In this document: piece after piece, positions 2,865 through 14,145 of the stretch
Layout of the letters: each line of letters begins with the position of its first letter
Position numbering within the stretch: the first letter of the stretch is position 1
DNA from: a virus
Taxonomy: Duplodnaviria > Heunggongvirae > Uroviricota > Caudoviricetes
DNA length: 14,327 nucleotides
Reading direction: 5' to 3' (one strand)
IMG/VR virus record: IMGVR_UViG_2690316148_000011
Program-made: the position numbers and the translations under genes
The notes under the pieces: model-generated
Database searches by the model: none
What the model was told of the DNA's origin: nothing
What the model saw: the letters and a program-made list of their open reading frames with translations, nothing else

Positions 2865-3683
2865 TTAAGCAGCCATCTGATGATATTTTTCCCTGAAGGC
2901 TGCCGGGGAGATATTCCCCAGACGAGAGTGACAACGCTGACGATTGTAGAAAATCTCAATGTATTCCCGTATTACTGAGATGGCTTCATCCCGGTTATTA
3001 AAACGATAGTGGCTCAGGCTCTCATTTTTCAGCGTTCCCCAGAAGCTTTCCATCGGAGCGTTGTCGTAACAGTTACCTTTACGCGACATTGATGTTTTCA
3101 GACCAGACTGCTCCTGTATGACCCGGTAATCGTATGCGCAGTACTGTGAACCTCGATCAGAGTGGTGGATTAGCCCGGCAGGTGGGCGCTGGCTCCTGAG
3201 CGCCATAAACAGGGCTTTACCTGTCAGCTCTTTTGTCATGCGCTCTCCCATGGCGTAGCCGACAATTTCGCACGTATAAACATCTTTGATGCCAGCGAGG
3301 TACAACCATCCCTCCTGTGTGGCAACATACGTCAGGTCCGCCACCCAGACCTGATTTGGTGCTGTAGGAGCGAACGTCTGGTTCAGCAGATTTGGCGCAA
3401 CTGGCAGATTGTGGTTCGAGTTCGTAGTCGCTCTGAACTTGCGTTTCTGCTTACAGCGTAGCCTTAGCTCCTTACGAAGACGTGCCAGTCGGTCACGACC
3501 AACGATGATGCCATTCTCTGCCAGCTCCGTCTGGAGCCGCCGGGTTCCATATGTTTCGCGAGTGCGGATATGTGCCACCTTAATCTCCAGTTTTAGCCGC
3601 TCATCACTTTGTTTTCTGTCTGAGGGTTCATGCTGTACCCAGTTGTAATAACCGCTCCTGGATACACCAAATACCTGACACAT
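2865..3683 (-). CDS. IS3-family transposase OrfB (DDE/integrase core), probably expressed as an OrfAB fusion by -1 frameshifting
   Basis: Motifs typical of the IS3 transposase catalytic domain (LIHHSDRGSQYCAYDY, SRKGNCYDNAPMESFW). I translated the orfB frame upstream of the first ATG by hand: it stays open to the A7G slippery run (about 3764-3772) inside orfA and is the -1 frame relative to orfA. Confidence 0.85.
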   Translation of the reverse strand: MCQVFGVSRSGYYNWVQHEPSDRKQSDERLKLEIKVAHIRTRETYGTRRLQTELAENGIIVGRDRLARLRKELRLRCKQKRKFRATTNSNHNLPVAPNLLNQTFAPTAPNQVWVADLTYVATQEGWLYLAGIKDVYTCEIVGYAMGERMTKELTGKALFMALRSQRPPAGLIHHSDRGSQYCAYDYRVIQEQSGLKTSMSRKGNCYDNAPMESFWGTLKNESLSHYRFNNRDEAISVIREYIEIFYNRQRCHSRLGNISPAAFREKYHQMAA

Positions 3684-3718
3684 CGCTTCAATGGGAAATT
3701 GTTGTCGCCATTGTTCGA

Positions 3719-3959
3719 TTAACGCGTATTTTTCAGCGACTCCTGTGCAAAATACGCTGTTGCTTTTTTTAATATATCTCGCTCAAGGCGAGCTTCATTT
3801 AACGCCTTACGCAGTTGCAGAATTTCAGATTCCAGTTCAGCCACCGTGCGGGAACCAGGAGTACCGAGCCCTTTTCTGGCGGCGGTAACCCATTGTCCTA
3901 AAGTGCCTTCAGGAAGAGATAATCGGGAAGCGCCTTCACTGATCGAAAGTTGATTTTCA
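3719..3959 (-). pseudogene. IS3-family OrfA, N-terminally truncated (HTH plus leucine-zipper region retained)
   Basis: Sequence ...LSISEGASRLSLPEGTLGQWV...ELESEILQLRKALNEARLERDILKKATAYF matches the C-terminal two-thirds of IS3-family OrfA. No start codon; the ORF runs into the n at 3960. Confidence 0.7.
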
Positions 3960-3960
3960 N

Positions 3961-4403
3961 ACCGGTCATCACGGAACCCGGCCAGCCTTGCGGTTGCCCT
4001 GCACATCCCACCATAATTTGAATGGAGCTGTGCATTACGCATAAAAAAACCGCTTCAGCGCGGCTATGCGCTCGAGTAACGTTCGGGTTTCCACGCCCGG
4101 CACCCGTTTTATAAGGTGCAGGTGCACTATAATTCCACCCGTTCTGGTTTTCAATAGCTACATTCAACATTTTCTCTCACCTTTCATCACCGAAGTGAAT
4201 TTTGTTGATGCGGTGCCTGGTGCCTCCAGGTGACGTTAACCAGTTAACAATTAACGCCGGATACAGGGAAACCCATAACCACCCGATACGGGGGAACTAA
4301 TCGCTTTTTAACTGTGCCGCGTGCGCTGAGCCGCATTCACCGCATCACAAAATTCACTTTAAAAAGGGCGGACATCAGCCAGCAATGAAACTGATGCCGC
4401 CAA
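3961..4403. repeat. Copy 2 of the ~430-bp duplicated module
   Basis: Aligns with 2241-2672 at a constant offset of 1720 for the first ~280 bp, then a divergent patch, then a second conserved block. Confidence 0.9.
4043..4117 (-). ncRNA. Second copy of the candidate small RNA; no downstream antirepressor gene because the truncated IS abuts it
   Basis: Same promoter hexamers (4125-4153) and a hairpin AGCCGC-GCUGAA-GCGGUU plus U-run at 4043-4065. Relative to copy 1 the changes fall in the loop and convert an A-U pair to G-U. Confidence 0.3.
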
Positions 4404-4802: not shown

Positions 4803-5148
4803 GAACTTGCAGAACGTCATGATCATAACTTCCATCCAAACCGCGACGGCGAATTGCTTCTCGTATTACCGGAAGCAGTTCGCTGGAAATCTCGGTGCAT
4901 ATTTCACCTGATAATACGCTTGGCTCAAGTGAGAATATTGGTGAACTTACGGTCTTGGTCTCGACAGTTTCAGAGTCAGTGCCAACATTATAAAGCTCAA
5001 CGAAAGCGGTCTTGATTTTCCGGGCCAGATCTTTTGCTGGCTCGCTTGCAATATCTTTCCCGATTTCTCGCAGCACAGAATGCAATGTATGAGCTGCTGT
5101 TTTCTGTACATCAGACGGTAAATCTTTAAATTCCATCGTCAGCCTCAT
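4771..5148 (-). CDS. Hypothetical protein (125 aa), second gene of a leftward PL-position operon
   Basis: Start ATG overlaps the stop of the upstream small ORF (TGATG); AT-rich relative to flanking DNA. No recognisable domain. Confidence 0.55.
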   Translation of the reverse strand: MRLTMEFKDLPSDVQKTAAHTLHSVLREIGKDIASEPAKDLARKIKTAFVELYNVGTDSETVETKTVSSPIFSLEPSVLSGEICTEISSELLPVIREAIRRRGLDGSYDHDVLQVLRTMVTSLGI

Positions 5149-5300
5149 CAGTCAGTGTTTCTGGCTAACCAGCAACGCGCGCCAGATTCGGTTTTAAACG
5201 TTTTGCTTTTGGTATACGTCATGGCGGTAAACGTTCCATCCTGGTTAGGGAACACGCCGCACACCAGAGATTCGTTGTTGCCAAGATCGATAGTATCCAT
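5148..5300 (-). CDS. Hypothetical small protein (about 50 aa), first gene of the leftward PL-position operon
   Basis: ATG at 5298-5300 preceded by GGGGA with about 12 nt spacing. The ORF-track version begins further upstream at 5354. Confidence 0.4.
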   Translation of the reverse strand: MDTIDLGNNESLVCGVFPNQDGTFTAMTYTKSKTFKTESGARCWLARNTD

Positions 5301-5479
5301 GCTGACCTCATTTCCCCTTAACGCCGGGGTGGCGGAACAAAAAACCTGCTGCATAGTTAAAGATTGAACCCTGCCGTCATGTTCTTACGCCTCGGGCTGG
5401 CTACTTAACCCCTGACCACTGTCTGGTAACTCGAAGTATTGCCCTGCATTCTGTGGGGCGGGGTGGGTTGACGCCTGAA

Positions 5480-5522
5480 AAAATAGCATCATTATTTTTT
5501 GATGTAAATAGCATCGCTATTG
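5480..5522 (-). promoter_or_regulatory. OL-like region: two 17-bp operator-like palindromes (5481-5497, 5506-5522) overlapping a leftward sigma70-like promoter
   Basis: AAATAGCATCATTATTT and AAATAGCATCGCTATTG, centres 25 bp apart; minus-strand -35 TTTACA (plus 5503-5508) and -10 TATTTT (plus 5480-5485) with 17-nt spacer. Confidence 0.5.
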
Positions 5523-5535
5523 TTTTTGTTGGGGC

Positions 5536-5560
5536 AAGAAAAAACCACCCTAAGGTGGTT
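5536..5560 (-). terminator. Rho-independent terminator downstream of the ParE-like gene (minus strand)
   Basis: Minus-strand AACCACC-UUAG-GGUGGUU hairpin (7-bp stem) followed by UUUUUUCUU, 17 nt after the toxin stop codon. Confidence 0.55.
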
Positions 5561-5576
5561 CTGTCGGCGGGAATAA

Positions 5577-5867
5577 TTAACTGTTTTTGCCTGGATACTG
5601 TCTTCGAGAATGCACAATATTTACTACTTCTATGCTTGATGCTGTTACTCGGTAAAGGATGATGTAGTTAGGATGAGTTACAATTTCACGAAGACCAAGA
5701 ACTCGCTCGCTTGGAGGATACAGGTAAGGATGCTCTGTGAGCGGCAAAACGGATGTTTCAATTCGAATTTTCATTCTGCGTGCTGCCGCGGGATTTTCTT
5801 TAGCTATGTAGGCTACGATCTGGCGCAAATCATCACGAGCAGATGGTAGCCATAAAACGGGTAACAT
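5577..5867 (-). CDS. ParE/RelE-family type II toxin (ParE2-like)
   Basis: 96-aa protein with ParE/RelE-like N-terminus (MLPVLWLPSARDDLRQIVAYI) and C-terminus (IILYRVTASSIEVVNIVHSRRQYP); start overlaps the antitoxin stop (TAATG). Confidence 0.85.
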   Translation of the reverse strand: MLPVLWLPSARDDLRQIVAYIAKENPAAARRMKIRIETSVLPLTEHPYLYPPSERVLGLREIVTHPNYIILYRVTASSIEVVNIVHSRRQYPGKNS

Positions 5868-6061
5868 TATTCACCTCTGTGAGTTGCAGCAGCAATTTGG
5901 GCAATAATTTGTTCCATTTCCGCCATTACCTCATCATGCGGAATCGCCGGGCGGGGATCCGCGAGGCTTGCTGCTACTTTGGCCCGCAGCCATTCGTTGT
6001 AACTATTTTCTTGCTCAACTGTCTCAAATTCTGAAACCATTGGGGAAAGGACTGTACTCAT
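5867..6061 (-). CDS. Small antitoxin, PaaA2-like
   Basis: 64-aa acidic protein immediately upstream of, and translationally coupled to, the ParE-like gene; AGGAG RBS 9 nt upstream. N-terminal SPMVSEFETVEQENSYNEWLRAKVAASLADPRPAIPHDEV resembles the PaaA2 antitoxin of E. coli O157 as I recall it. Confidence 0.75.
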   Translation of the reverse strand: MSTVLSPMVSEFETVEQENSYNEWLRAKVAASLADPRPAIPHDEVMAEMEQIIAQIAAATHRGE

Positions 6062-6080
6062 TTTACATATCTCCTCTGAT

Positions 6081-6581
6081 TTAGGCGCGACGGCCTTTTT
6101 GTGCAGCTAACCACCGCGCAACCGTACGATCCATTGATTCTTTTTTATCTTTCATCTCCTGAAGCATGTGTTCTTGATCTTCTTTCGGAAAAGCTCTGAA
6201 CGTATGGATTAAATCTCGTTCCATCGGCTCTACGGCAAACGGTAGTTCATCCTCTGTTTGTTCTGTGTCTGCTGGTAATGCGACTATGTTATCTTGCTGT
6301 GGTTCTCGACAATACATCCTTGCAATTTGCAGCAAATCTACCATGTCTGGCCTGATTGACTCAGGGGGAACTTTCAGTAAGCCAGCAAACTTTAGAACAG
6401 CCTCAAGGTTTAGTGGGGTTTGACCATTTAGGTAGTGACTTACCGCCCCTTGTGTTGAAAACCCCATAATTTCCGCCGCACGTTCCTGAGTCAATCCCAA
6501 CTGAGATTTCTTTGCCATCCAGATTTCTTTCAGTCTTCTGGCGGCGTTGAGGTCGGTGTCTGACAATGATTTTCTTTTCAT
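6081..6581 (-). CDS. HTH (XRE/cI-like) transcriptional repressor, PaaR2/RacR-like; probable prophage immunity repressor
   Basis: HTH motif LTQERAAEIMGFSTQGAVSHYLNG; no peptidase S24 domain; first gene of the repressor-antitoxin-toxin operon; divergent from a Cro-like gene across an operator-bearing intergenic region. The ORF-track start at 6611 is GTG without an SD, so ATG 6579-6581 was chosen. Confidence 0.75.
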   Translation of the reverse strand: MKRKSLSDTDLNAARRLKEIWMAKKSQLGLTQERAAEIMGFSTQGAVSHYLNGQTPLNLEAVLKFAGLLKVPPESIRPDMVDLLQIARMYCREPQQDNIVALPADTEQTEDELPFAVEPMERDLIHTFRAFPKEDQEHMLQEMKDKKESMDRTVARWLAAQKGRRA

Positions 6582-6615
6582 ACATCCAATTCTAATAAGA
6601 TTGCTAATCACTTTG

Positions 6616-6657
6616 AAATAGCATCACTATTTACTTTTAAAAATAACAGTGCTATTA
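6616..6657. promoter_or_regulatory. OR-like region: two operator-like palindromes (6616-6632; inverted degenerate copy 6641-6657) between the divergent repressor and Cro-like genes
   Basis: AAATAGCATCACTATTT (perfect 6-bp arms) and, on the other strand, AATAGCACTGTTATTTT; centres 25 bp apart, the same spacing as the OL-like pair. Promoter hexamers are only weakly recognisable (for example TTTACT ... ATTAAT). Confidence 0.5.
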
Positions 6658-6692
6658 ATTATGCATTGGTAACACATCACATAGGGCGGATT

Positions 6693-6956
6693 ATGAATCT
6701 TGGAGAATATTTGCATCATTTTCATATAACCCAGAGTTCATTTGCTGAGATTGTTGGCGCATCCCAAGGGATGGTCAGCCACGTTATAACGGGGCGTGCA
6801 AAACTTACAGGAGAAAAAATATTACGTTGGTGTGAAGCAACGGGATGGGTGGTGACCCCACATGAGATTGACAGTAAAACCTACCCCAACCCAACTGACG
6901 GCTTGCCTGCTGAGTTTCAGGCTAACACACAACCATCGGCGGGGGTTGATTCATGA
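6693..6956 (+). CDS. Cro-like HTH regulator (YdaS family)
   Basis: 87-aa protein with HTH (SQGMVSHVITGRAKLTGEKILRW); ATG at 6693 with AGGG RBS; divergent from the repressor; overlaps the next gene (ATGA). Confidence 0.7.
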   Translation: MNLGEYLHHFHITQSSFAEIVGASQGMVSHVITGRAKLTGEKILRWCEATGWVVTPHEIDSKTYPNPTDGLPAEFQANTQPSAGVDS

Positions 6957-7378
6957 AAATCAAGCATGAACACATCCGCATGGCGATGAAAGCCTGGGCG
7001 CATCCGGACGGTGAAAAAGTTCCGGCAGCTGAAATAACCAGGGTTTATTTCGAACTGGGAATGACGTTTCCGGTTCTGCATAACGACAGCAAGCACAACA
7101 CGCTTTATCTCAACACCCAAAAGATTTTCCGTTGGCTGGATAAAGACACCCCTGACGCTGTTGAAAAAATTCAGGCGTTGTTACCTGCGATCGAAAGGGC
7201 AATGCCACCTCCGCTGGTGGCTCGAATGCGCAGCCACAGTTCAGCTTATTTTCGGGAACTGGTGGAGACGCATGAACGACTGGTGAGAGACGCTGATGAT
7301 TTTGTCGCAGTGGCAATCGCCGGTTTCAATCAGATGAACCGTGGTGGCCCGGCAGGAAATGCTGTGGCAGTACATTGA
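6953..7378 (+). CDS. YdaT-like protein (Rac-type early-region protein, reported as toxic in Rac)
   Basis: 141 aa, N-terminus MKIKHEHI...; position directly downstream of the Cro/YdaS-like gene matches the Rac racR-ydaS-ydaT arrangement. Family assignment is from memory of that locus. Confidence 0.55.
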   Translation: MKIKHEHIRMAMKAWAHPDGEKVPAAEITRVYFELGMTFPVLHNDSKHNTLYLNTQKIFRWLDKDTPDAVEKIQALLPAIERAMPPPLVARMRSHSSAYFRELVETHERLVRDADDFVAVAIAGFNQMNRGGPAGNAVAVH

Positions 7379-10509: not shown

Positions 10510-11019
10510 ATGGAAATAAAACCAGAAGATGAGTTAAGCAATATTGTTTTATTTCCGGTAAAAGAGGATAACCCTCGTAATCAGGTTAATTTTCTTTATG
10601 AGCCATCGGAAAGACCATATTGCCATCACGCTTCTGTCCGGGTTGACGAAAAAGAGCGTCAGGTCCGCTGTAAAATNNNNNNNNNNNNNNNNNNNNNNNN
10701 NNNNNNNNNNNNNNNNNNNNNNNNNNNNNNNNNNNNNNNNNNNNNNNNNNNNNNNNNNNNNNNNNNNNNNNNNNNNNNNNNNNNNNNNNNNNNNNNNNNN
10801 NNNNNNNNNNNNNNNNNNNNNNNNNNNNNNNNNNNNNNNNNNNNNNNNNNNTTTGACTGGATGCTCTCTGTGGCGAAAAGAGAAACCAGACTGGCAGATG
10901 ATGTAAGGCTCTTGCGCCAGGAGGAGCGGGAAAGGCGAAAAAATATAGAAAAGCTAATCCAGATTGAGCGTAATGCGAAAGCGCGGATACGCAGGGTGAC
11001 AAAATATAGCCCCGAATAA
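10510..11019 (+). CDS. Hypothetical protein interrupted by an N run; possible Cys/His-containing N-terminal segment
   Basis: ATG at 10510 preceded by AAGGAGAGGAG. The 175-nt N run (10677-10851) is not a multiple of 3, so frame continuity across it is unknown. C-terminal part is charged and coiled-coil-like. Confidence 0.4.
   Translation: MEIKPEDELSNIVLFPVKEDNPRNQVNFLYEPSERPYCHHASVRVDEKERQVRCKXXXXXXXXXXXXXXXXXXXXXXXXXXXXXXXXXXXXXXXXXXXXXXXXXXXXXXXXXXXFDWMLSVAKRETRLADDVRLLRQEERERRKNIEKLIQIERNAKARIRRVTKYSPE
10677..10851. other. Run of 175 N (assembly gap or masked sequence)
   Basis: Literal n characters. Confidence 1.
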
Positions 11020-11233: not shown

Positions 11234-13066
11234 ATGGCCCGCATGTTTGATACATTAGGATTTTACATTATGAATGTGCAACATTTTGATTTTTTTACAG
11301 ATAATGAGTTTTCTAATCTGGAAAGATATCAAACTTGTAAAGCCATGGCCAAAGGTTATGCGGGCAATTACAAAACCGGGCAGTCAAGGTTGATGCATGC
11401 CCGCTCATACTGCTTCAGCATCGTAGCTGCATATTGGGATACCCTTGCAAAAAAGCAAAAAAGCAGCATTAAAATGAGGGCAGTACCGCACACTGTTTAC
11501 ATAGAAGACATTCCATGTGATGCACGCGAGCTCGCTGAACGAACAGGTGAGCTTATTGCTCAATTTCCGGCGGAGGACGCTGGATATCTGATTGGGTCAA
11601 TTTATACGGTAATGCTGCCATCCGCTTACCGTTCGGAATTGGGGGCTTACTATACCCCCCCACCTTTGGTAGCGCGTCTCTTGGACCTGGCTGAAAAGTC
11701 TGGTGTTGATTTTTCTCATGCATCGGTTATTGATCCTGCGTGTGGTGGCGGTGCATTTTTGGCACCAGTAGCCATTCGAATGTTAAAAAAAGACAAGGGG
11801 TCTTCCCCTGAATGGATGTTGAGGAGAATCAGTCGTCGTTTAAAGGGGATAGAAATCGATCCATTTGCGGCTTGGATGAGTTTGGTATTGCTCGAATCTG
11901 TACTAATGCCACTATGTGTAAAGGTAAAACGTAGATTGCCTGAAGATACAATTATTGTTGCTGATGCGCTTCAGCAAGATAAATTTTCTGGTTATGATCT
12001 TGTGGTAGGGAATCCGCCTTACGGACGTGTCACTCTCGATATTAAAACGAGAGAAAAATATTCTCGTTCGTTATTTGGTCATGCAAATCTATATGGATTG
12101 TTCACCGACTTAGCTGTTCGCATGGTTAAAGAGAAAACAGGAGTTATTGCATTTCTTACGCCAACTTCTTTTCTTGGTGGGCAGTATTTCACCGCGCTGC
12201 GAACCCTTTTGACCGAAAAAACTACTCCGTATGCCCTTGATTTCGTCACTGACAGGGATGGGGTCTTTGACGATGTTCTCCAGGAAACAATGTTGACAGC
12301 ATTCAAGGCGGGAGAACATAAAGTTCGGGCCCAGGTATCCTCACTTGTCCCTAAGGGGTTGAACAAAGCAAAAATTGAGAAAATAGGTAATGTTGATATA
12401 GAAAAAGGTGGAGCAACGTGGCTTTTGCCACGCGTTAAAGATGATGCCTGTTTTCTTAATGTATTAAAACAGATGTCTACGCGTTTAGCTGATCTGGGAT
12501 ACTCAGTCTCTACAGGTCAGTTAGTCTGGAATCGATTTAAGTCGCAGTTGCGTACGACGAAAGGAAAAAATAGCTACCCATTAGTCTGGGCGGAATCAAT
12601 AACTTCAGCTGGTTTTCGTTTTAGTGCAGACAGAAAAAATCATGTTCCCTATATCGATATAACCCCACAACAGGGTTTCCTTGTGACAAAATCTGAATGT
12701 GTGCTTGTTCAGCGGACAACATCGAAGGAACAGGACAGAAGGATTTTAGCGGCAATTTTACCTCAGGGATTTATAGATGAAACTGGTGGCGTAGTAGTTG
12801 AAAACCATATTAATATTGTATATTCAAACGGATTGTTCTCTGCGGTTCGCCCTGATGTTATTGATATGCTACTTAATTCGCATGTTGTCGATCGGGCGTT
12901 CAGGTGTATAAGCGGAAGTGTTGCTGTTTCGGCCTATGAATTGAATTCAATCCCGTTGCCTTCTCTGGAGCAGGTGATGGAGATTCAATCGTTAATTGAT
13001 GCTGGCGTCCACAGACGGATTATTGAGAGAACTATCGCTGGTTTCTATGGAGTGATGATTGCATGA
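11234..13066 (+). CDS. N6-adenine DNA methyltransferase, gamma-class (motif I before motif IV), Type II R-M modification subunit
   Basis: Motif X/I YYTPPPLVARLLDLA ... VIDPACGGGAFL followed by motif IV VVGNPPYGRV; long C-terminal region consistent with a target-recognition domain. AT-rich compared with the prophage core. Start uncertain: ATG 11234 (weak SD) or ATG 11269 (AGGA upstream). Confidence 0.85.
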   Translation: MARMFDTLGFYIMNVQHFDFFTDNEFSNLERYQTCKAMAKGYAGNYKTGQSRLMHARSYCFSIVAAYWDTLAKKQKSSIKMRAVPHTVYIEDIPCDARELAERTGELIAQFPAEDAGYLIGSIYTVMLPSAYRSELGAYYTPPPLVARLLDLAEKSGVDFSHASVIDPACGGGAFLAPVAIRMLKKDKGSSPEWMLRRISRRLKGIEIDPFAAWMSLVLLESVLMPLCVKVKRRLPEDTIIVADALQQDKFSGYDLVVGNPPYGRVTLDIKTREKYSRSLFGHANLYGLFTDLAVRMVKEKTGVIAFLTPTSFLGGQYFTALRTLLTEKTTPYALDFVTDRDGVFDDVLQETMLTAFKAGEHKVRAQVSSLVPKGLNKAKIEKIGNVDIEKGGATWLLPRVKDDACFLNVLKQMSTRLADLGYSVSTGQLVWNRFKSQLRTTKGKNSYPLVWAESITSAGFRFSADRKNHVPYIDITPQQGFLVTKSECVLVQRTTSKEQDRRILAAILPQGFIDETGGVVVENHINIVYSNGLFSAVRPDVIDMLLNSHVVDRAFRCISGSVAVSAYELNSIPLPSLEQVMEIQSLIDAGVHRRIIERTIAGFYGVMIA

Positions 13067-14145
13067 ATCTGCCTGTTGTTCCCCCATTGAATGTTATCCG
13101 GGAAAGATTACAATTAATTTTCCCTGAAGGGACTGAGAATCGTGGATATTTAATTCGGGAAATAGCTGCAAAAACAATTTTTGTCATGTTTTATGCTGGT
13201 GCGGTTGAGGGGCTGGGGCGATGGATAAGGCCCAGCCAGGTTGTAAGTATGGGAGATTCGCAGGCTGCTCTTACTGATGATGCGTCCAGAGAAAGCTGGG
13301 TAAAGATGACTTTCTCTAAACAAAAGATAAGGCCTGCTGATGCATGGTATGCGGAAAATACGCGTGAGCCAATACGTGATGAAACTATAAAAAATGGCCT
13401 AATACCTTGCAATGCAATTGTTGAGCGTAAAGGTATACCCACCACATCCTCTCGTCCTCGTTACAGTTTGAATCGCTCTTTTGCAGCACTCTTTGATGCC
13501 GGGCTTGAAGGAGATTCGCTGCTGAGTGCAATAAGTTCCTGGCAAGAAAATCATTTGAACAAAGCCGCTCTTGCTAGGTTGCGTTTATTGAAATCAGGGG
13601 CAGTGATTGCTGCTGATGCCGTAGTCGTCACTTTCCCAAATGGAGAGAAGAGAACTTTAGCTCCGGGCCCGTCAAGTACAATAGCTAAGGCCGTCATCGA
13701 AGTTTTTGCTCCTAATTTTCTTAAGAATCCAACTGTGCTCTGGTTGTCTGAATCCGGGAATAAAGTTGTTGCTCAGGATGATGTATTGGCAAAAGCATTG
13801 GGGCTGAATATTGATGCCTCAAAAGCACTTCCAGATATTATTTTGATTGATTTGGGAGAGGACCGAACGGGTTCGGACATGCTTGTAGTTTTCACTGAAG
13901 TAGTTGCGACAGATGGGCCTATAAACAGGGAACGAAAAGTTACTCTCACTCATTTGGCTATTGACGCTGGGTTCAGCGAGAAAAATCTTGCATTCCTTAC
14001 GGCATTTATGGACAGAAGTGCTCTGCCTTTTAAAAAGGCAATACCAGAATTGGCGTGGGGATCTTATGCATGGTTTGCTTCTGAACCGGAGCACTTAATT
14101 GATCTTCGGGATGGTTATCCGGTAAAGATCAGCCAGAGAAAATGA
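13063..14145 (+). CDS. Putative restriction endonuclease partner of the methyltransferase (possibly BsuBI/PstI-like; unverified)
   Basis: 360-aa ORF whose ATG overlaps the methyltransferase stop (ATGA) with GGAG upstream; same AT-rich composition; size and position typical of a Type II endonuclease. No catalytic motif could be assigned confidently by eye. Confidence 0.5.
   Translation: MNLPVVPPLNVIRERLQLIFPEGTENRGYLIREIAAKTIFVMFYAGAVEGLGRWIRPSQVVSMGDSQAALTDDASRESWVKMTFSKQKIRPADAWYAENTREPIRDETIKNGLIPCNAIVERKGIPTTSSRPRYSLNRSFAALFDAGLEGDSLLSAISSWQENHLNKAALARLRLLKSGAVIAADAVVVTFPNGEKRTLAPGPSSTIAKAVIEVFAPNFLKNPTVLWLSESGNKVVAQDDVLAKALGLNIDASKALPDIILIDLGEDRTGSDMLVVFTEVVATDGPINRERKVTLTHLAIDAGFSEKNLAFLTAFMDRSALPFKKAIPELAWGSYAWFASEPEHLIDLRDGYPVKISQRK

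Follow-up and report, generated by a model that had tools for sequence, protein, structure and literature searches.

The closest described system is that of CP-933P (Sp12), a cryptic prophage of E. coli O157:H7 with the gene arrangement paaR2-paaA2-parE2 / ydaS-ydaT (Hallez 2010; Jurenas 2021, PMC8630535). There, footprints of PaaR2 and of YdaS were obtained at OR, and both proteins repress PR and PRM as well as PL933P, a PL promoter located downstream of the toxin-antitoxin genes, where repression is approximately 100-fold (PMC8630535). PRM activation at low repressor level, a leaderless paaR2 mRNA and PaaR2 octamers have also been reported for CP-933P (PMC8630535).

The viral DNA analysed here (the window, 14,327 nucleotides at its full length) had been read as a lambda-like switch with two pairs of repressor operators, and this architecture was offered as new. 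That layout is genuine yet unremarkable, as experiments on the related CP-933P had already established it (PaaR2/YdaS/YdaT; Jurenas 2021, PMC8630535). Judged from sequence, the four sites very probably serve as operators (OR and OL) in the PaaR/YdaS/YdaT-type immunity region of a lambdoid prophage, and the comparisons below support the proposal that the repressor would control both early operons.

Genes of the immunity region

The following genes and gene-junction elements were assigned.

5148..5354, minus strand: ydfA (DUF1391), the first leftward early gene past PL; Pfam DUF1391, E 3e-28
5577..5867, minus strand: ParE-family toxin, 96 aa; Pfam ParE_toxin, E 1.8e-17; PDB 5cw7 (ParE2), E 6.7e-37
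5867..6061, minus strand: PaaA2-family antitoxin, 64 aa; Pfam PF21217 (PaaA2), E 3e-23; PDB 3zbe, E 1.4e-23
6081..6581, minus strand: repressor, 166 aa; lambda CI-like N-terminal HTH, linker and PaaR-type C-terminal domain
6693..6956, plus strand: Cro/YdaS-like regulator, 87 aa; HTH_3, E 4e-4
6946..6963: binding site for YdaT (the CII analogue) at the cro/ydaT junction, TTGATTCATGAAAATCAA; exact, 0 mismatches
6953..7378, plus strand: YdaT-family protein (CII analogue), 141 aa; Pfam YdaT_toxin, E 5e-9

In a Pfam search at E <= 0.01, the repressor matched only HTH_3 (E 8e-9) and HTH_31, and no S24 peptidase (self-cleaving) domain was found in it. Residues 2-81 matched the lambda CI N-terminal domain (1lmb; E 2.9e-9), a homology that includes the N-terminal basic arm. 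The C-terminal 44 aa were 52% identical to PaaR2 (E 5e-15) and the DNA-binding domain was not homologous to that of PaaR2; a PDB sequence search with the repressor returned lambda CI entries only, with no PaaR2 match. The Cro-like protein was similar to the N-terminal domain of the repressor (38% over 48 aa, E 5e-7), and their recognition helices were alike (SQGMVSHVITG in the Cro-like protein, TQGAVSHYLNG in the repressor).

The proposed repressor-headed toxin-antitoxin operon was borne out by the Pfam and PDB matches, in the order repressor, PaaA2-family antitoxin, ParE toxin. The repressor-to-paaA gap is 19 nt and carries a GAGGAG Shine-Dalgarno sequence, and paaA and parE overlap. The YdaT site agrees in motif and position with the footprinted OM site of the CP-933P YdaT (PMC9986795). 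At consensus level, no PRE-like sigma-70 promoter was found near it, which is expected because such a promoter would be activator-dependent. The DUF1391 gene is annotated as ydfA in relatives. An IS element was observed in the leftward operon of the prophage, which may be cryptic.

Probable operator sites and promoters

The window contains four strong 17-bp pseudo-palindromes with the family consensus AAATAGCA-N-TGCTATTT, together with a weaker candidate.

5481..5497: OL1-like operator, AAATAGCATCATTATTT; 22.1 bits; left half overlaps the PL-like -10 and extended -10
5506..5522: OL2-like operator, AAATAGCATCGCTATTG; 23.2 bits; shares 3 bp with the PL-like -35
6593..6609: possible weak OR3-like site, TAATAAGATTGCTAATC; centre 23 bp from OR2; overlaps the PRM -10 and spacer
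6616..6632: OR2-like operator, AAATAGCATCACTATTT; 23.6 bits; overlaps the PR -35 (6630-6635) and abuts the PRM -35
6641..6657: OR1-like operator, AAATAACAGTGCTATTA; 22.1 bits; spans the PR spacer and -10

The pattern AAATAGCANNNYTATTK, as originally described, matched exactly at 5481-5497, 5506-5522 and 6616-6632, and the inverted, degenerate copy was recovered on the minus strand at 6641-6657 with 1 mismatch. All four copies of the described palindrome are thus present, but their symmetry is imperfect, with 5-6 of 8 symmetric pairs. At up to 2 mismatches, AAATAGCANNNYTATTK gave 7 strand-matches, compared to 0.43 +/- 0.62 in 200 dinucleotide-preserving shuffles, none of which reached 7. Site centres (5489/5514 and 6624/6649) are 25 bp apart in both pairs, and the OL-to-OR distance is 1135 bp. 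This two-pair arrangement of 17-bp sites far exceeds chance.

With a half-site weight matrix, the four sites scored 22.1-23.6 bits and the next-best 17-mer of the window 9.2 bits; these scores are circular for the window because the matrix was derived from the same four sites, and the matrix is independent for the loci of relatives. The OR3-like candidate scored 7.6-8.2 bits (9th of approximately 13,800 17-mers) and is kept in relatives, although this conservation is confounded with that of PRM. No third OL site was found by matrix scan of the window.

Promoter and terminator signals around the sites were as follows.

5480..5508, minus strand: PL-like promoter; -35 TTTACA (5508..5503), 17-nt spacer, TGc-TATTTT -10 (5485..5480)
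5535..5562, minus strand: intrinsic terminator closing the repressor-paaA-parE operon, with a 9-bp stem, a UUAG loop and a U-rich tail
6589..6617, minus strand: PRM-like promoter; TTCAAA (6617..6612), 17-nt spacer, TAGAAT (6594..6589); found by the promoter scanner
6630..6658, plus strand: PR-like promoter; TTTACT (6630-6635), 17-nt spacer, TGc-TATTAA (6653-6658); found by eye

A leftward promoter had been claimed under the 5481-5522 pair, and the PL-like signal, a sigma-70-like TTTACA-17-TATTTT with TG before the -10, answers to it and is directed into ydfA. A rightward promoter-like match at 5468-5495 (TTGACG-16-CATTAT) was dropped, its -35 not being kept in relatives. The OL/PL pair sits just beyond the repressor-paaA-parE terminator, whose predicted fold has an energy of -15.1 kcal/mol (z = -3.1; 0/200 shuffles equal) and whose hairpin is kept in relatives. 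Likewise, the second pair (6616-6657) does lie between divergent genes, in the 111-bp gap between the repressor (minus strand) and the Cro/YdaS-like gene (plus strand). There it shares sequence with the PR-like promoter and borders on the PRM-like one, and the OL pair overlaps the PL-like promoter. The PR-like promoter falls below the rule of the promoter scanner because its -10 ends in A; it has the same layout as PL and was kept in 21 distinct OR sequences. For the PRM-like promoter, the -10 TAGAAT ends 7-8 nt before the repressor ATG, with no Shine-Dalgarno sequence, and the predicted start (around 6581/6582) falls on that ATG, so the repressor mRNA is predicted to be leaderless.

An independent repeat finder recovered the complete two-site module in two forms, a 48-nt direct repeat (5481-5528 / 6616-6663, 73%) and a 40-nt inverted repeat. 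The repeats could be mainly a duplicated PL/PR promoter module, with extended -10 and -35 elements that look palindromic by accident and no dedicated repressor. Repetition of the entire 48-bp module fits such an origin, as does the fact that in both PL and PR TGCTATT is a TGn-extended -10 and CTATTTAC a -35. However, half-sites lying off the promoter hexamers, such as the left one of OR2 and the right one of OL2, are equally conserved, dyad symmetry around a free centre base is a usual mark of dimer binding, and among relatives the motif is swapped along with the HTH domains while flanking DNA is kept. We therefore regard a pure promoter duplication as improbable, and favour repressor operators. 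Since the TGCTATT half-site is also the extended -10 of PL and PR, conservation of the sites could still partly reflect promoter function.

Conservation and exchange of the sites among relatives

The related loci (44 from IMG/VR and 4 from E. coli, 48 in total) encode repressors 77-100% identical to that of the window. In each, exactly four sites reached 14 bits, two of them before the repressor ATG (positions -76 and -51) and two approximately 550-590 bp beyond the repressor stop, and no further one was found elsewhere in about 230 kb. Half-site positions 2-5 (AATA) were invariant in 58/58 half-sites, and the central base was free (29 distinct 17-mers). The identical 25-bp spacing held in the window and at every OR examined, but not at the OL of relatives, where it ranged from 24 to 28 bp even among near-identical sequences; because of this variation, it is doubtful that cooperativity at OL depends strictly on spacing, unless some of the copies are in decay.

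A single-site scan of IMG/VR with AAATAGCNNNGCTATTT returned, among the 120 matches listed, mostly isolated chance sites in unrelated viral contigs. A repressor homologue was present in 5 of the 120 listed loci, and among the listed matches pairs of strong sites occurred only beside repressor homologues. In genome contigs, a repressor-based search for related loci found nothing, and a 31-nt two-site pattern identified one true relative (L299) among 120 listed loci, AT-rich chance matches dominating. Single exact copies of the consensus do turn up by chance in very large collections, and the four sites might likewise be chance matches in AT-rich intergenic DNA. Motif frequency in a host genome was gauged by analytic expectation and approximately 2 Mb of fetched DNA; the expectation of 0.08 sites of at least 22 bits per 5 Mb, the shuffle counts and the conservation at 48 loci together refute this explanation, to which we assign a negligible probability.

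Support for repressor operators also came from loci in which parts of the region are exchanged. Where another N-terminal domain is combined with the same C-terminal domain and toxin-antitoxin genes (L005/L006, L051-L057 and the true CP-933P locus, L058), the loci lacked the sites and carried their own OR/OL repeats. In L058, no site reached 12 bits and the repeats were of the TTTAGTAA/CACTAAAC type; for these reasons, the window is predicted to be heteroimmune to CP-933P. Conversely, 244-255-aa proteins with the same N-terminal domain and other cargo (none, or HipA_2+DUF3037) kept the same operator pairs, both at OR and at an OL located past the cargo. These are tandem double-HTH repressors, in which the N-terminal domain of the window precedes a second, different HTH. 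GCTATTT-type sites were also found upstream of an N-terminal domain that is 41% identical and shares the recognition helix. At least five types of N-terminal domain were seen. These comparisons support the view that the sites track the repressor's DNA-binding domain, appearing with it and disappearing where it has been replaced.

The same exchanges bear on whether the sites are instead autoregulatory operators of a PaaA-ParE complex, as in canonical type II toxin-antitoxin systems, since they flank the toxin-antitoxin operon. Relatives with the same toxin-antitoxin genes have other operators, however, and relatives without these genes keep the operators. PaaA2-family antitoxins moreover lack a DNA-binding domain (PMC8630535), and Pfam found only the 33-residue PaaA2 motif in the antitoxin of the window. 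Autoregulation by PaaA-ParE is thus very hard to sustain. Somewhat less remote, but still unlikely, is that the sites serve the Cro/YdaS-like protein only and that the 166-aa repressor uses other DNA. The sites co-vary with the Cro-like gene no less than with the repressor N-terminal domain, and the HTH of the Cro-like protein has a similar recognition helix. Near-identical recognition helices nevertheless argue for common rather than exclusive sites; the two proteins have a common binding region in lambda and in CP-933P, and the 111-bp intergenic region offers no other repeated motif for the repressor. We therefore retain the repressor as a probable ligand of all four sites.

Alignment with CP-933P places the edges of the exchanged segments. 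Homology ends at 5470, 10 bp left of OL1. It is regained across the toxin-antitoxin genes and the C-terminal domain of the repressor, is absent once more over 6210-6941 (N-terminal domain, OR and cro) and reappears at ydaT. This locates, to within a few bases, where the immunity cassette has its recombination boundaries (5470/5471 and ~6941/6942), which bears on the published idea that an embedded toxin-antitoxin pair guards the immunity region against replacement. The immunity type occurred in approximately 1.3% of complete E. coli genomes (72/5,426) and also in Shigella sonnei; none was found in deposited phage genomes, where the best match was lambda CI, at 31%.

Proposed switch and comparison with known systems

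In the switch that we propose, repressor dimers would read the half-site AATAGCA via the helix TQGAVSHYLNG and fill OR1+OR2 and OL1+OL2 as adjacent pairs, and the bound repressor would shut off the rightward (cro-ydaT-replication) and leftward (ydfA and beyond) early operons. The centre of the OR2-like site lies at about -42/-43 relative to the predicted PRM start and acidic residues of the repressor align to E34 and D38 of lambda CI, so a dimer at OR2 may stimulate transcription of the repressor's own gene and the toxin-antitoxin genes. Through the possible weak third site over PRM, the repressor may also limit its own synthesis. The recognition helix of the Cro-like protein is near-identical to that of the repressor, and this protein is probably a competitor for the same sites. 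The repressor C-terminal domain may bridge OL and OR; PaaR2 forms octamers. For looping and PRM activation the models are lambda and PaaR2, only the 44 C-terminal residues being common with the latter, and both may apply here. Induction by RecA-stimulated self-cleavage is not expected, given that the repressor has no S24 peptidase domain.

A testable operator-repressor pair (half-site and recognition helix) is thereby defined, and a heteroimmune counterpart is added to the only characterised PaaR-type switch, while understanding of such switches is unchanged. More tentatively, and with less than even confidence, the PaaR C-terminal domain and the cargo slot could be a constant chassis that receives unrelated DNA-binding domains by exchange, each along with two short matching DNA patches (OL/PL and OR/cro). 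If so, the window would be one specificity of a plug-and-play immunity system with the addiction module inside the swappable cassette, and the double-HTH forms might confer dual immunity.

The lambda-like two-operator layout holds in its main parts, with divergent repressor and cro-like genes, operators over divergent promoters and a second set at OL/PL. As in lambda, 17-bp pseudo-symmetric operators lie over the -10 and -35 of PR and PL, an OR2-like site sits near -42 of PRM, and non-essential cargo stands between the repressor gene and OL (rexAB in lambda, paaA-parE here). Adjacent lambda operators are 23-24 bp apart, compared to 25 bp here. Unlike lambda, the window has a short PaaR-type C-terminus in place of a self-cleavage domain, another operator sequence, two strong sites in each region where lambda and CP-933P have three, an OL-OR distance of 1.1 kb rather than 2.3 kb and YdaT as the CII analogue; an N or nut system was not identified. 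Rac (RacR/YdaS/YdaT) and Qin (DicA/DicC) of E. coli K-12 belong to the same lambdoid immunity family (PMC8630535), here likened by gene type, with YdaS/YdaT-type regulators in the right operon and ydfA-ydfB-ydfC-dicB-type left operons; by description, their repressors and operators are different ones, and toxin-antitoxin genes do not follow the repressor.

CP-933P is the nearest of these systems. Both loci have the repressor, antitoxin and toxin genes leftward and ydaS-ydaT rightward, PR and PRM overlapping within a short intergenic region, PL with a further set of operators just past the toxin-antitoxin genes, a leaderless repressor mRNA (predicted here) and a repressor without an S24 peptidase domain. 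The YdaT operator TTGATTN6AATCAA at the ydaS/ydaT junction is identical. The OL left flank is 93-96% identical, and a PL-type promoter with operators occupies the same place relative to this conserved flank in L058; the PL-like promoter is the counterpart of PL933P. At the nucleotide level, the toxin-antitoxin genes and the repressor C-terminus are approximately 76% identical; the toxin is 67% identical to ParE2 (tblastn) and nearer to a second O157:H7 copy. In contrast, the lambda CI-like N-terminal domain of the repressor (166 aa, compared to 123 aa) is unrelated in sequence to that of CP-933P, the Cro-like protein differs, and operators of the form AAATAGCA-N-TGCTATTT, two strong ones per region, stand where CP-933P has repeats of consensus GTTTAGTAA, forming three operators at OL and, from four inverted repeats, three at OR. 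Since the repressor N-terminal domain and the operators differ and only the last 44 residues are common with PaaR2, the window appears to hold a new immunity specificity of a known kind.

Paired sites and the promoters around them

The pattern AAATAGCANNNYTATTK of the sequence-only reading was matched exactly at 5481-5497, 5506-5522 and 6616-6632; its fourth match, at 6641-6657, is on the other strand and differs at one position. With up to two mismatches allowed on both strands, 7 matches were found in the window against 0.43 expected from 200 dinucleotide-preserving shuffles, none of which gave as many as 7; these matches bear out the four copies, and the motif observation is confirmed in the window. 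The site centres (5489/5514 and 6624/6649) are 25 bp apart within both pairs, the identical spacing that had been noticed. Palindromy is imperfect (5-6 of 8 symmetric pairs), and an independent repeat finder returned the two-site module (5481-5528 vs 6616-6663) as a direct and also an inverted repeat. Using a half-site weight matrix, the four sites scored 22.1-23.6 bits and the next best 17-mer of the window 9.2, a comparison that is circular within the window because the matrix was built from these four sites; a uniform background would yield 0.08 sites of at least 22 bits in every 5 Mb.

Features around the sites, with lambda-style names for predicted promoters

5148-5354: ydfA (DUF1391), into which PL reads
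5508..5480, minus strand: PL-like promoter, TTTACA-17-TATTTT (promoter scan)
5535-5562, minus strand: hairpin with U-tail, operon terminator (-15.1 kcal/mol, z -3.1)
5577-5867, minus strand: ParE toxin, 96 aa (PDB match to ParE2)
5867-6061, minus strand: PaaA2-family antitoxin, 64 aa (PDB match to PaaA2)
6081-6581, minus strand: HTH repressor, 166 aa, first in minus-strand order
6617..6589, minus strand: PRM-like promoter, TTCAAA-17-TAGAAT (promoter scan)
6630-6658, plus strand: PR-like promoter, TTTACT-17-TGcTATTAA (read by eye)
6693-6956, plus strand: Cro/YdaS-like HTH protein, 87 aa, divergent from the repressor
6953-7378, plus strand: YdaT-family protein, downstream of the Cro-like gene

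The minus-strand gene order (repressor, antitoxin, toxin) agrees with the claim that the repressor heads a toxin-antitoxin operon, and the OL-like pair with PL lies directly past the terminator of this operon. Scanning the window for promoters gave two on the minus strand near the sites. One pair indeed overlaps a leftward promoter, with the PL-like -10 within the left half of the site at 5481 and the -35 touching the site at 5506, and the other (6616-6657) sits between the divergent repressor and Cro-like genes, as had been proposed. The sites at 6616 and 6641 stand to the PR-like promoter as the OL-like pair stands to the PL-like promoter, and at PL and PR the half-site TGCTATT also forms the extended -10. 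In lambda terms, 6641-6657 would be OR1-like, 6616-6632 OR2-like, 5481-5497 OL1-like and 5506-5522 OL2-like. The predicted PRM start coincides with the repressor ATG at 6581, and the centre of the OR2-like site is at about -42/-43 relative to this start, as CI is placed at lambda OR2. Each region has only two strong sites; a candidate third OR site, TAATAAGATTGCTAATC (6593-6609), is centred 23 bp from OR2 over the PRM -10 and spacer and scores about 8 bits (top 0.07% of 17-mers), and its conservation is confounded with that of the overlapped promoter, which is conserved too.

Elsewhere on the prophage, a restriction-modification pair occupies 11234-14145 (Eco57I/N6_Mtase-type methyltransferase, 610 aa; BsuBI/PstI-family restriction endonuclease, 360 aa). 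Inside the leftward early operon lies an IS3-family element (2865-4042; HTH_Tnp_1 orfA 3719-4042, rve orfB 2865-3683), flanked by two copies of a ~440-bp segment (2241-2672 and 3961-4403, 90-99% identical); a single N stands at 3960. Three minus-strand segments (2211-2298, 2323-2399 and 4043-4119) match Rfam families above the gathering score, one as a C4 antisense RNA and two as isrK RNAs; downstream of them are an Ash/Rha-family gene (1596-2450) and a truncated Ash fragment (3898-4170), an arrangement that looks like a P1/P7-type c4-antirepressor module within the PL operon. Runs of N at 991-1266 (276 bases) and 10677-10851 (175 bases) break ORFs in the left and right arms, and gene calls around them are therefore unreliable.

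Sites and DNA-binding domains among relatives

Repressors 77-100% identical to that of the window were encoded in 44 IMG/VR and 4 E. coli loci. Each of these 48 loci has exactly four sites of at least 14 bits. They lie at positions -76 and -51 relative to the repressor ATG and ~550-590 bp beyond its stop, past paaA-parE, and no further such site was found in ~230 kb. Over 29 distinct 17-mers, AATA at half-site positions 2-5 never varies (58/58 half-sites), positions 6-8 usually read GCA and the centre is unconstrained, giving the consensus AAATAGCA-N-TGCTATTT. In alignments of relatives, the outer site bases are fixed, while variation is seen at the centre of the sites and in the spacer between them. 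The OR spacing is invariant at 25 bp, whereas the OL spacing is 24, 25, 26, 27 or 28 bp depending on the relative, because a T-run changes length; identical spacing is thus true of the window and is not a conserved property of OL. This T-run between OL1 and OL2 (equivalent to window 5498-5505) differs in length even in L007-L015, loci with repressors 99-100% identical, and the variation could come from slippage at the homopolymer, from errors of assembly, or from a relaxed constraint on cryptic copies.

A second group has the same toxin-antitoxin genes and repressor C-terminal domain with another N-terminal domain: L005/L006 (one O157:H7 copy, repressor of 133 aa), L051-L057, and L058, taken as the true locus of the E. 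coli O157:H7 cryptic prophage CP-933P by the published PaaR2 N-terminus MQKKE and 97-bp intergenic region. Window-type sites are absent from all of these loci, which have other repeats at the OR and OL positions alike. Up to 5470, which is 10 bp to the left of OL1, nucleotide identity of the window to CP-933P-type loci is 93-96%; past this point homology stops, to be found again at ~76% in the toxin-antitoxin genes and repressor C-terminus. It is gone once more at ~6210-6941 (N-terminal domain, OR and cro) and returns at 6942, the ydaT start. The immunity-specific DNA thus forms two patches, with one operator pair in each. The ~115-bp PL-ydfA leader (5354-5470), which forms the left-hand limit for recombination of the immunity cassette, is 86-96% identical across wholly different immunity types (CP-933P, L051 and L053).

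In proteins of 244-255 aa, the lambda CI-like HTH domain of the window is followed by a second, different HTH and a PaaR-type C-terminus. Their loci carry no cargo, or HipA_2+DUF3037, instead of paaA-parE, and retain AATAGCA operator pairs. Spacing is 25 bp at OR and 24 or 26 bp at OL, whose pair follows the cargo and is separated from the repressor gene by ~0.2 or 2.2 kb. These double-HTH repressors (P0013-P0023) come from L179-L182 and L299, and their second HTH resembles 132-aa PaaR variants. In the window (5577-6061), paaA-parE fills the slot between repressor and OL; the slot is empty in L179/L180, L181/L182 have HipA_2+DUF3037 there, and L183/L184 have higB-higA. TATTAGCAATGCTATTT and AAATAGCACGGCTATTT occur upstream of a more distant N-terminal domain (41% identical) that shares this recognition helix. 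Together, the comparative results link the motif to this HTH domain and to the Cro-like protein that goes with it, rather than to the toxin-antitoxin genes, flanking DNA or chance. Alongside what is established here (site statistics and positions, gene content, and co-variation of sites with HTH domains), we consider it very probable that the four sites serve both early operons as operators for the repressor and Cro.

Repressor, Cro-like protein and predicted regulation

Repressor residues 2-81 align to 1lmb, the N-terminal domain of lambda CI (E 2.9e-9), including its basic N-terminal arm, with acidic residues at the places of E34 and D38 of CI. An S24 peptidase domain was not detected in the repressor. 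Over the final 44 residues it shares 52% identity with the PaaR2 C-terminus (E 5e-15), and outside these residues the two proteins did not align further. The N-terminal domain also matches the Cro-like neighbour (38% over 48 aa, E 5e-7), with nearly alike recognition helices (TQGAVSHYLNG vs SQGMVSHVITG), which would fit two proteins in competition for one set of sites.

Repressor dimers would read AATAGCA half-sites and, by filling the paired sites, would repress PL and PR. Stimulation of PRM via OR2 and weak autorepression via OR3 are possible, and the Cro-like protein probably competes for the same sites. The PaaR-type C-terminus may bridge OL and OR, and induction would proceed without RecA-stimulated self-cleavage.

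Comparison with known systems

A literature search found no paper on this operator/repressor specificity, and the repressor was not found in a deposited phage, the best match being lambda CI at 31%. The immunity type is no rarity: at least 80% of the 1.7-kb region is present in 72 of 5,426 complete E. coli genomes, and an identical repressor protein is annotated in Shigella sonnei.

In CP-933P, PaaR2 is the CI analogue at the head of paaR2-paaA2-parE2; it lacks a peptidase motif, forms octamers and is translated from a leaderless mRNA (Jurenas et al. 2021, PMC8630535). PaaR2 and YdaS both footprint the 97-bp intergenic region and repress PR and PRM, PRM being activated at low PaaR2; either protein also represses, ~100-fold, a PL promoter that carries matching operators and lies past the toxin-antitoxin genes (PMC8630535). 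The lambda-like two-operator architecture predicted by the sequence-only reading is thus supported by sites, promoters and comparison, but as a novelty it does not stand, since it had been published for CP-933P. The cargo slot between the repressor gene and OL parallels rexAB of lambda. YdaT has its binding site, TTGATTN6AATCAA, at the ydaS/ydaT junction (Prolic-Kalinsek et al. 2023, PMC9986795), and an exact copy spans the cro stop and ydaT start at 6946-6963 of the window. The window and CP-933P therefore share a YdaT-type operator at the cro/ydaT junction, where CP-933P-type homology resumes (6942), whereas the repressor DNA-binding domain, the Cro protein and the operator sequence of the window are different.
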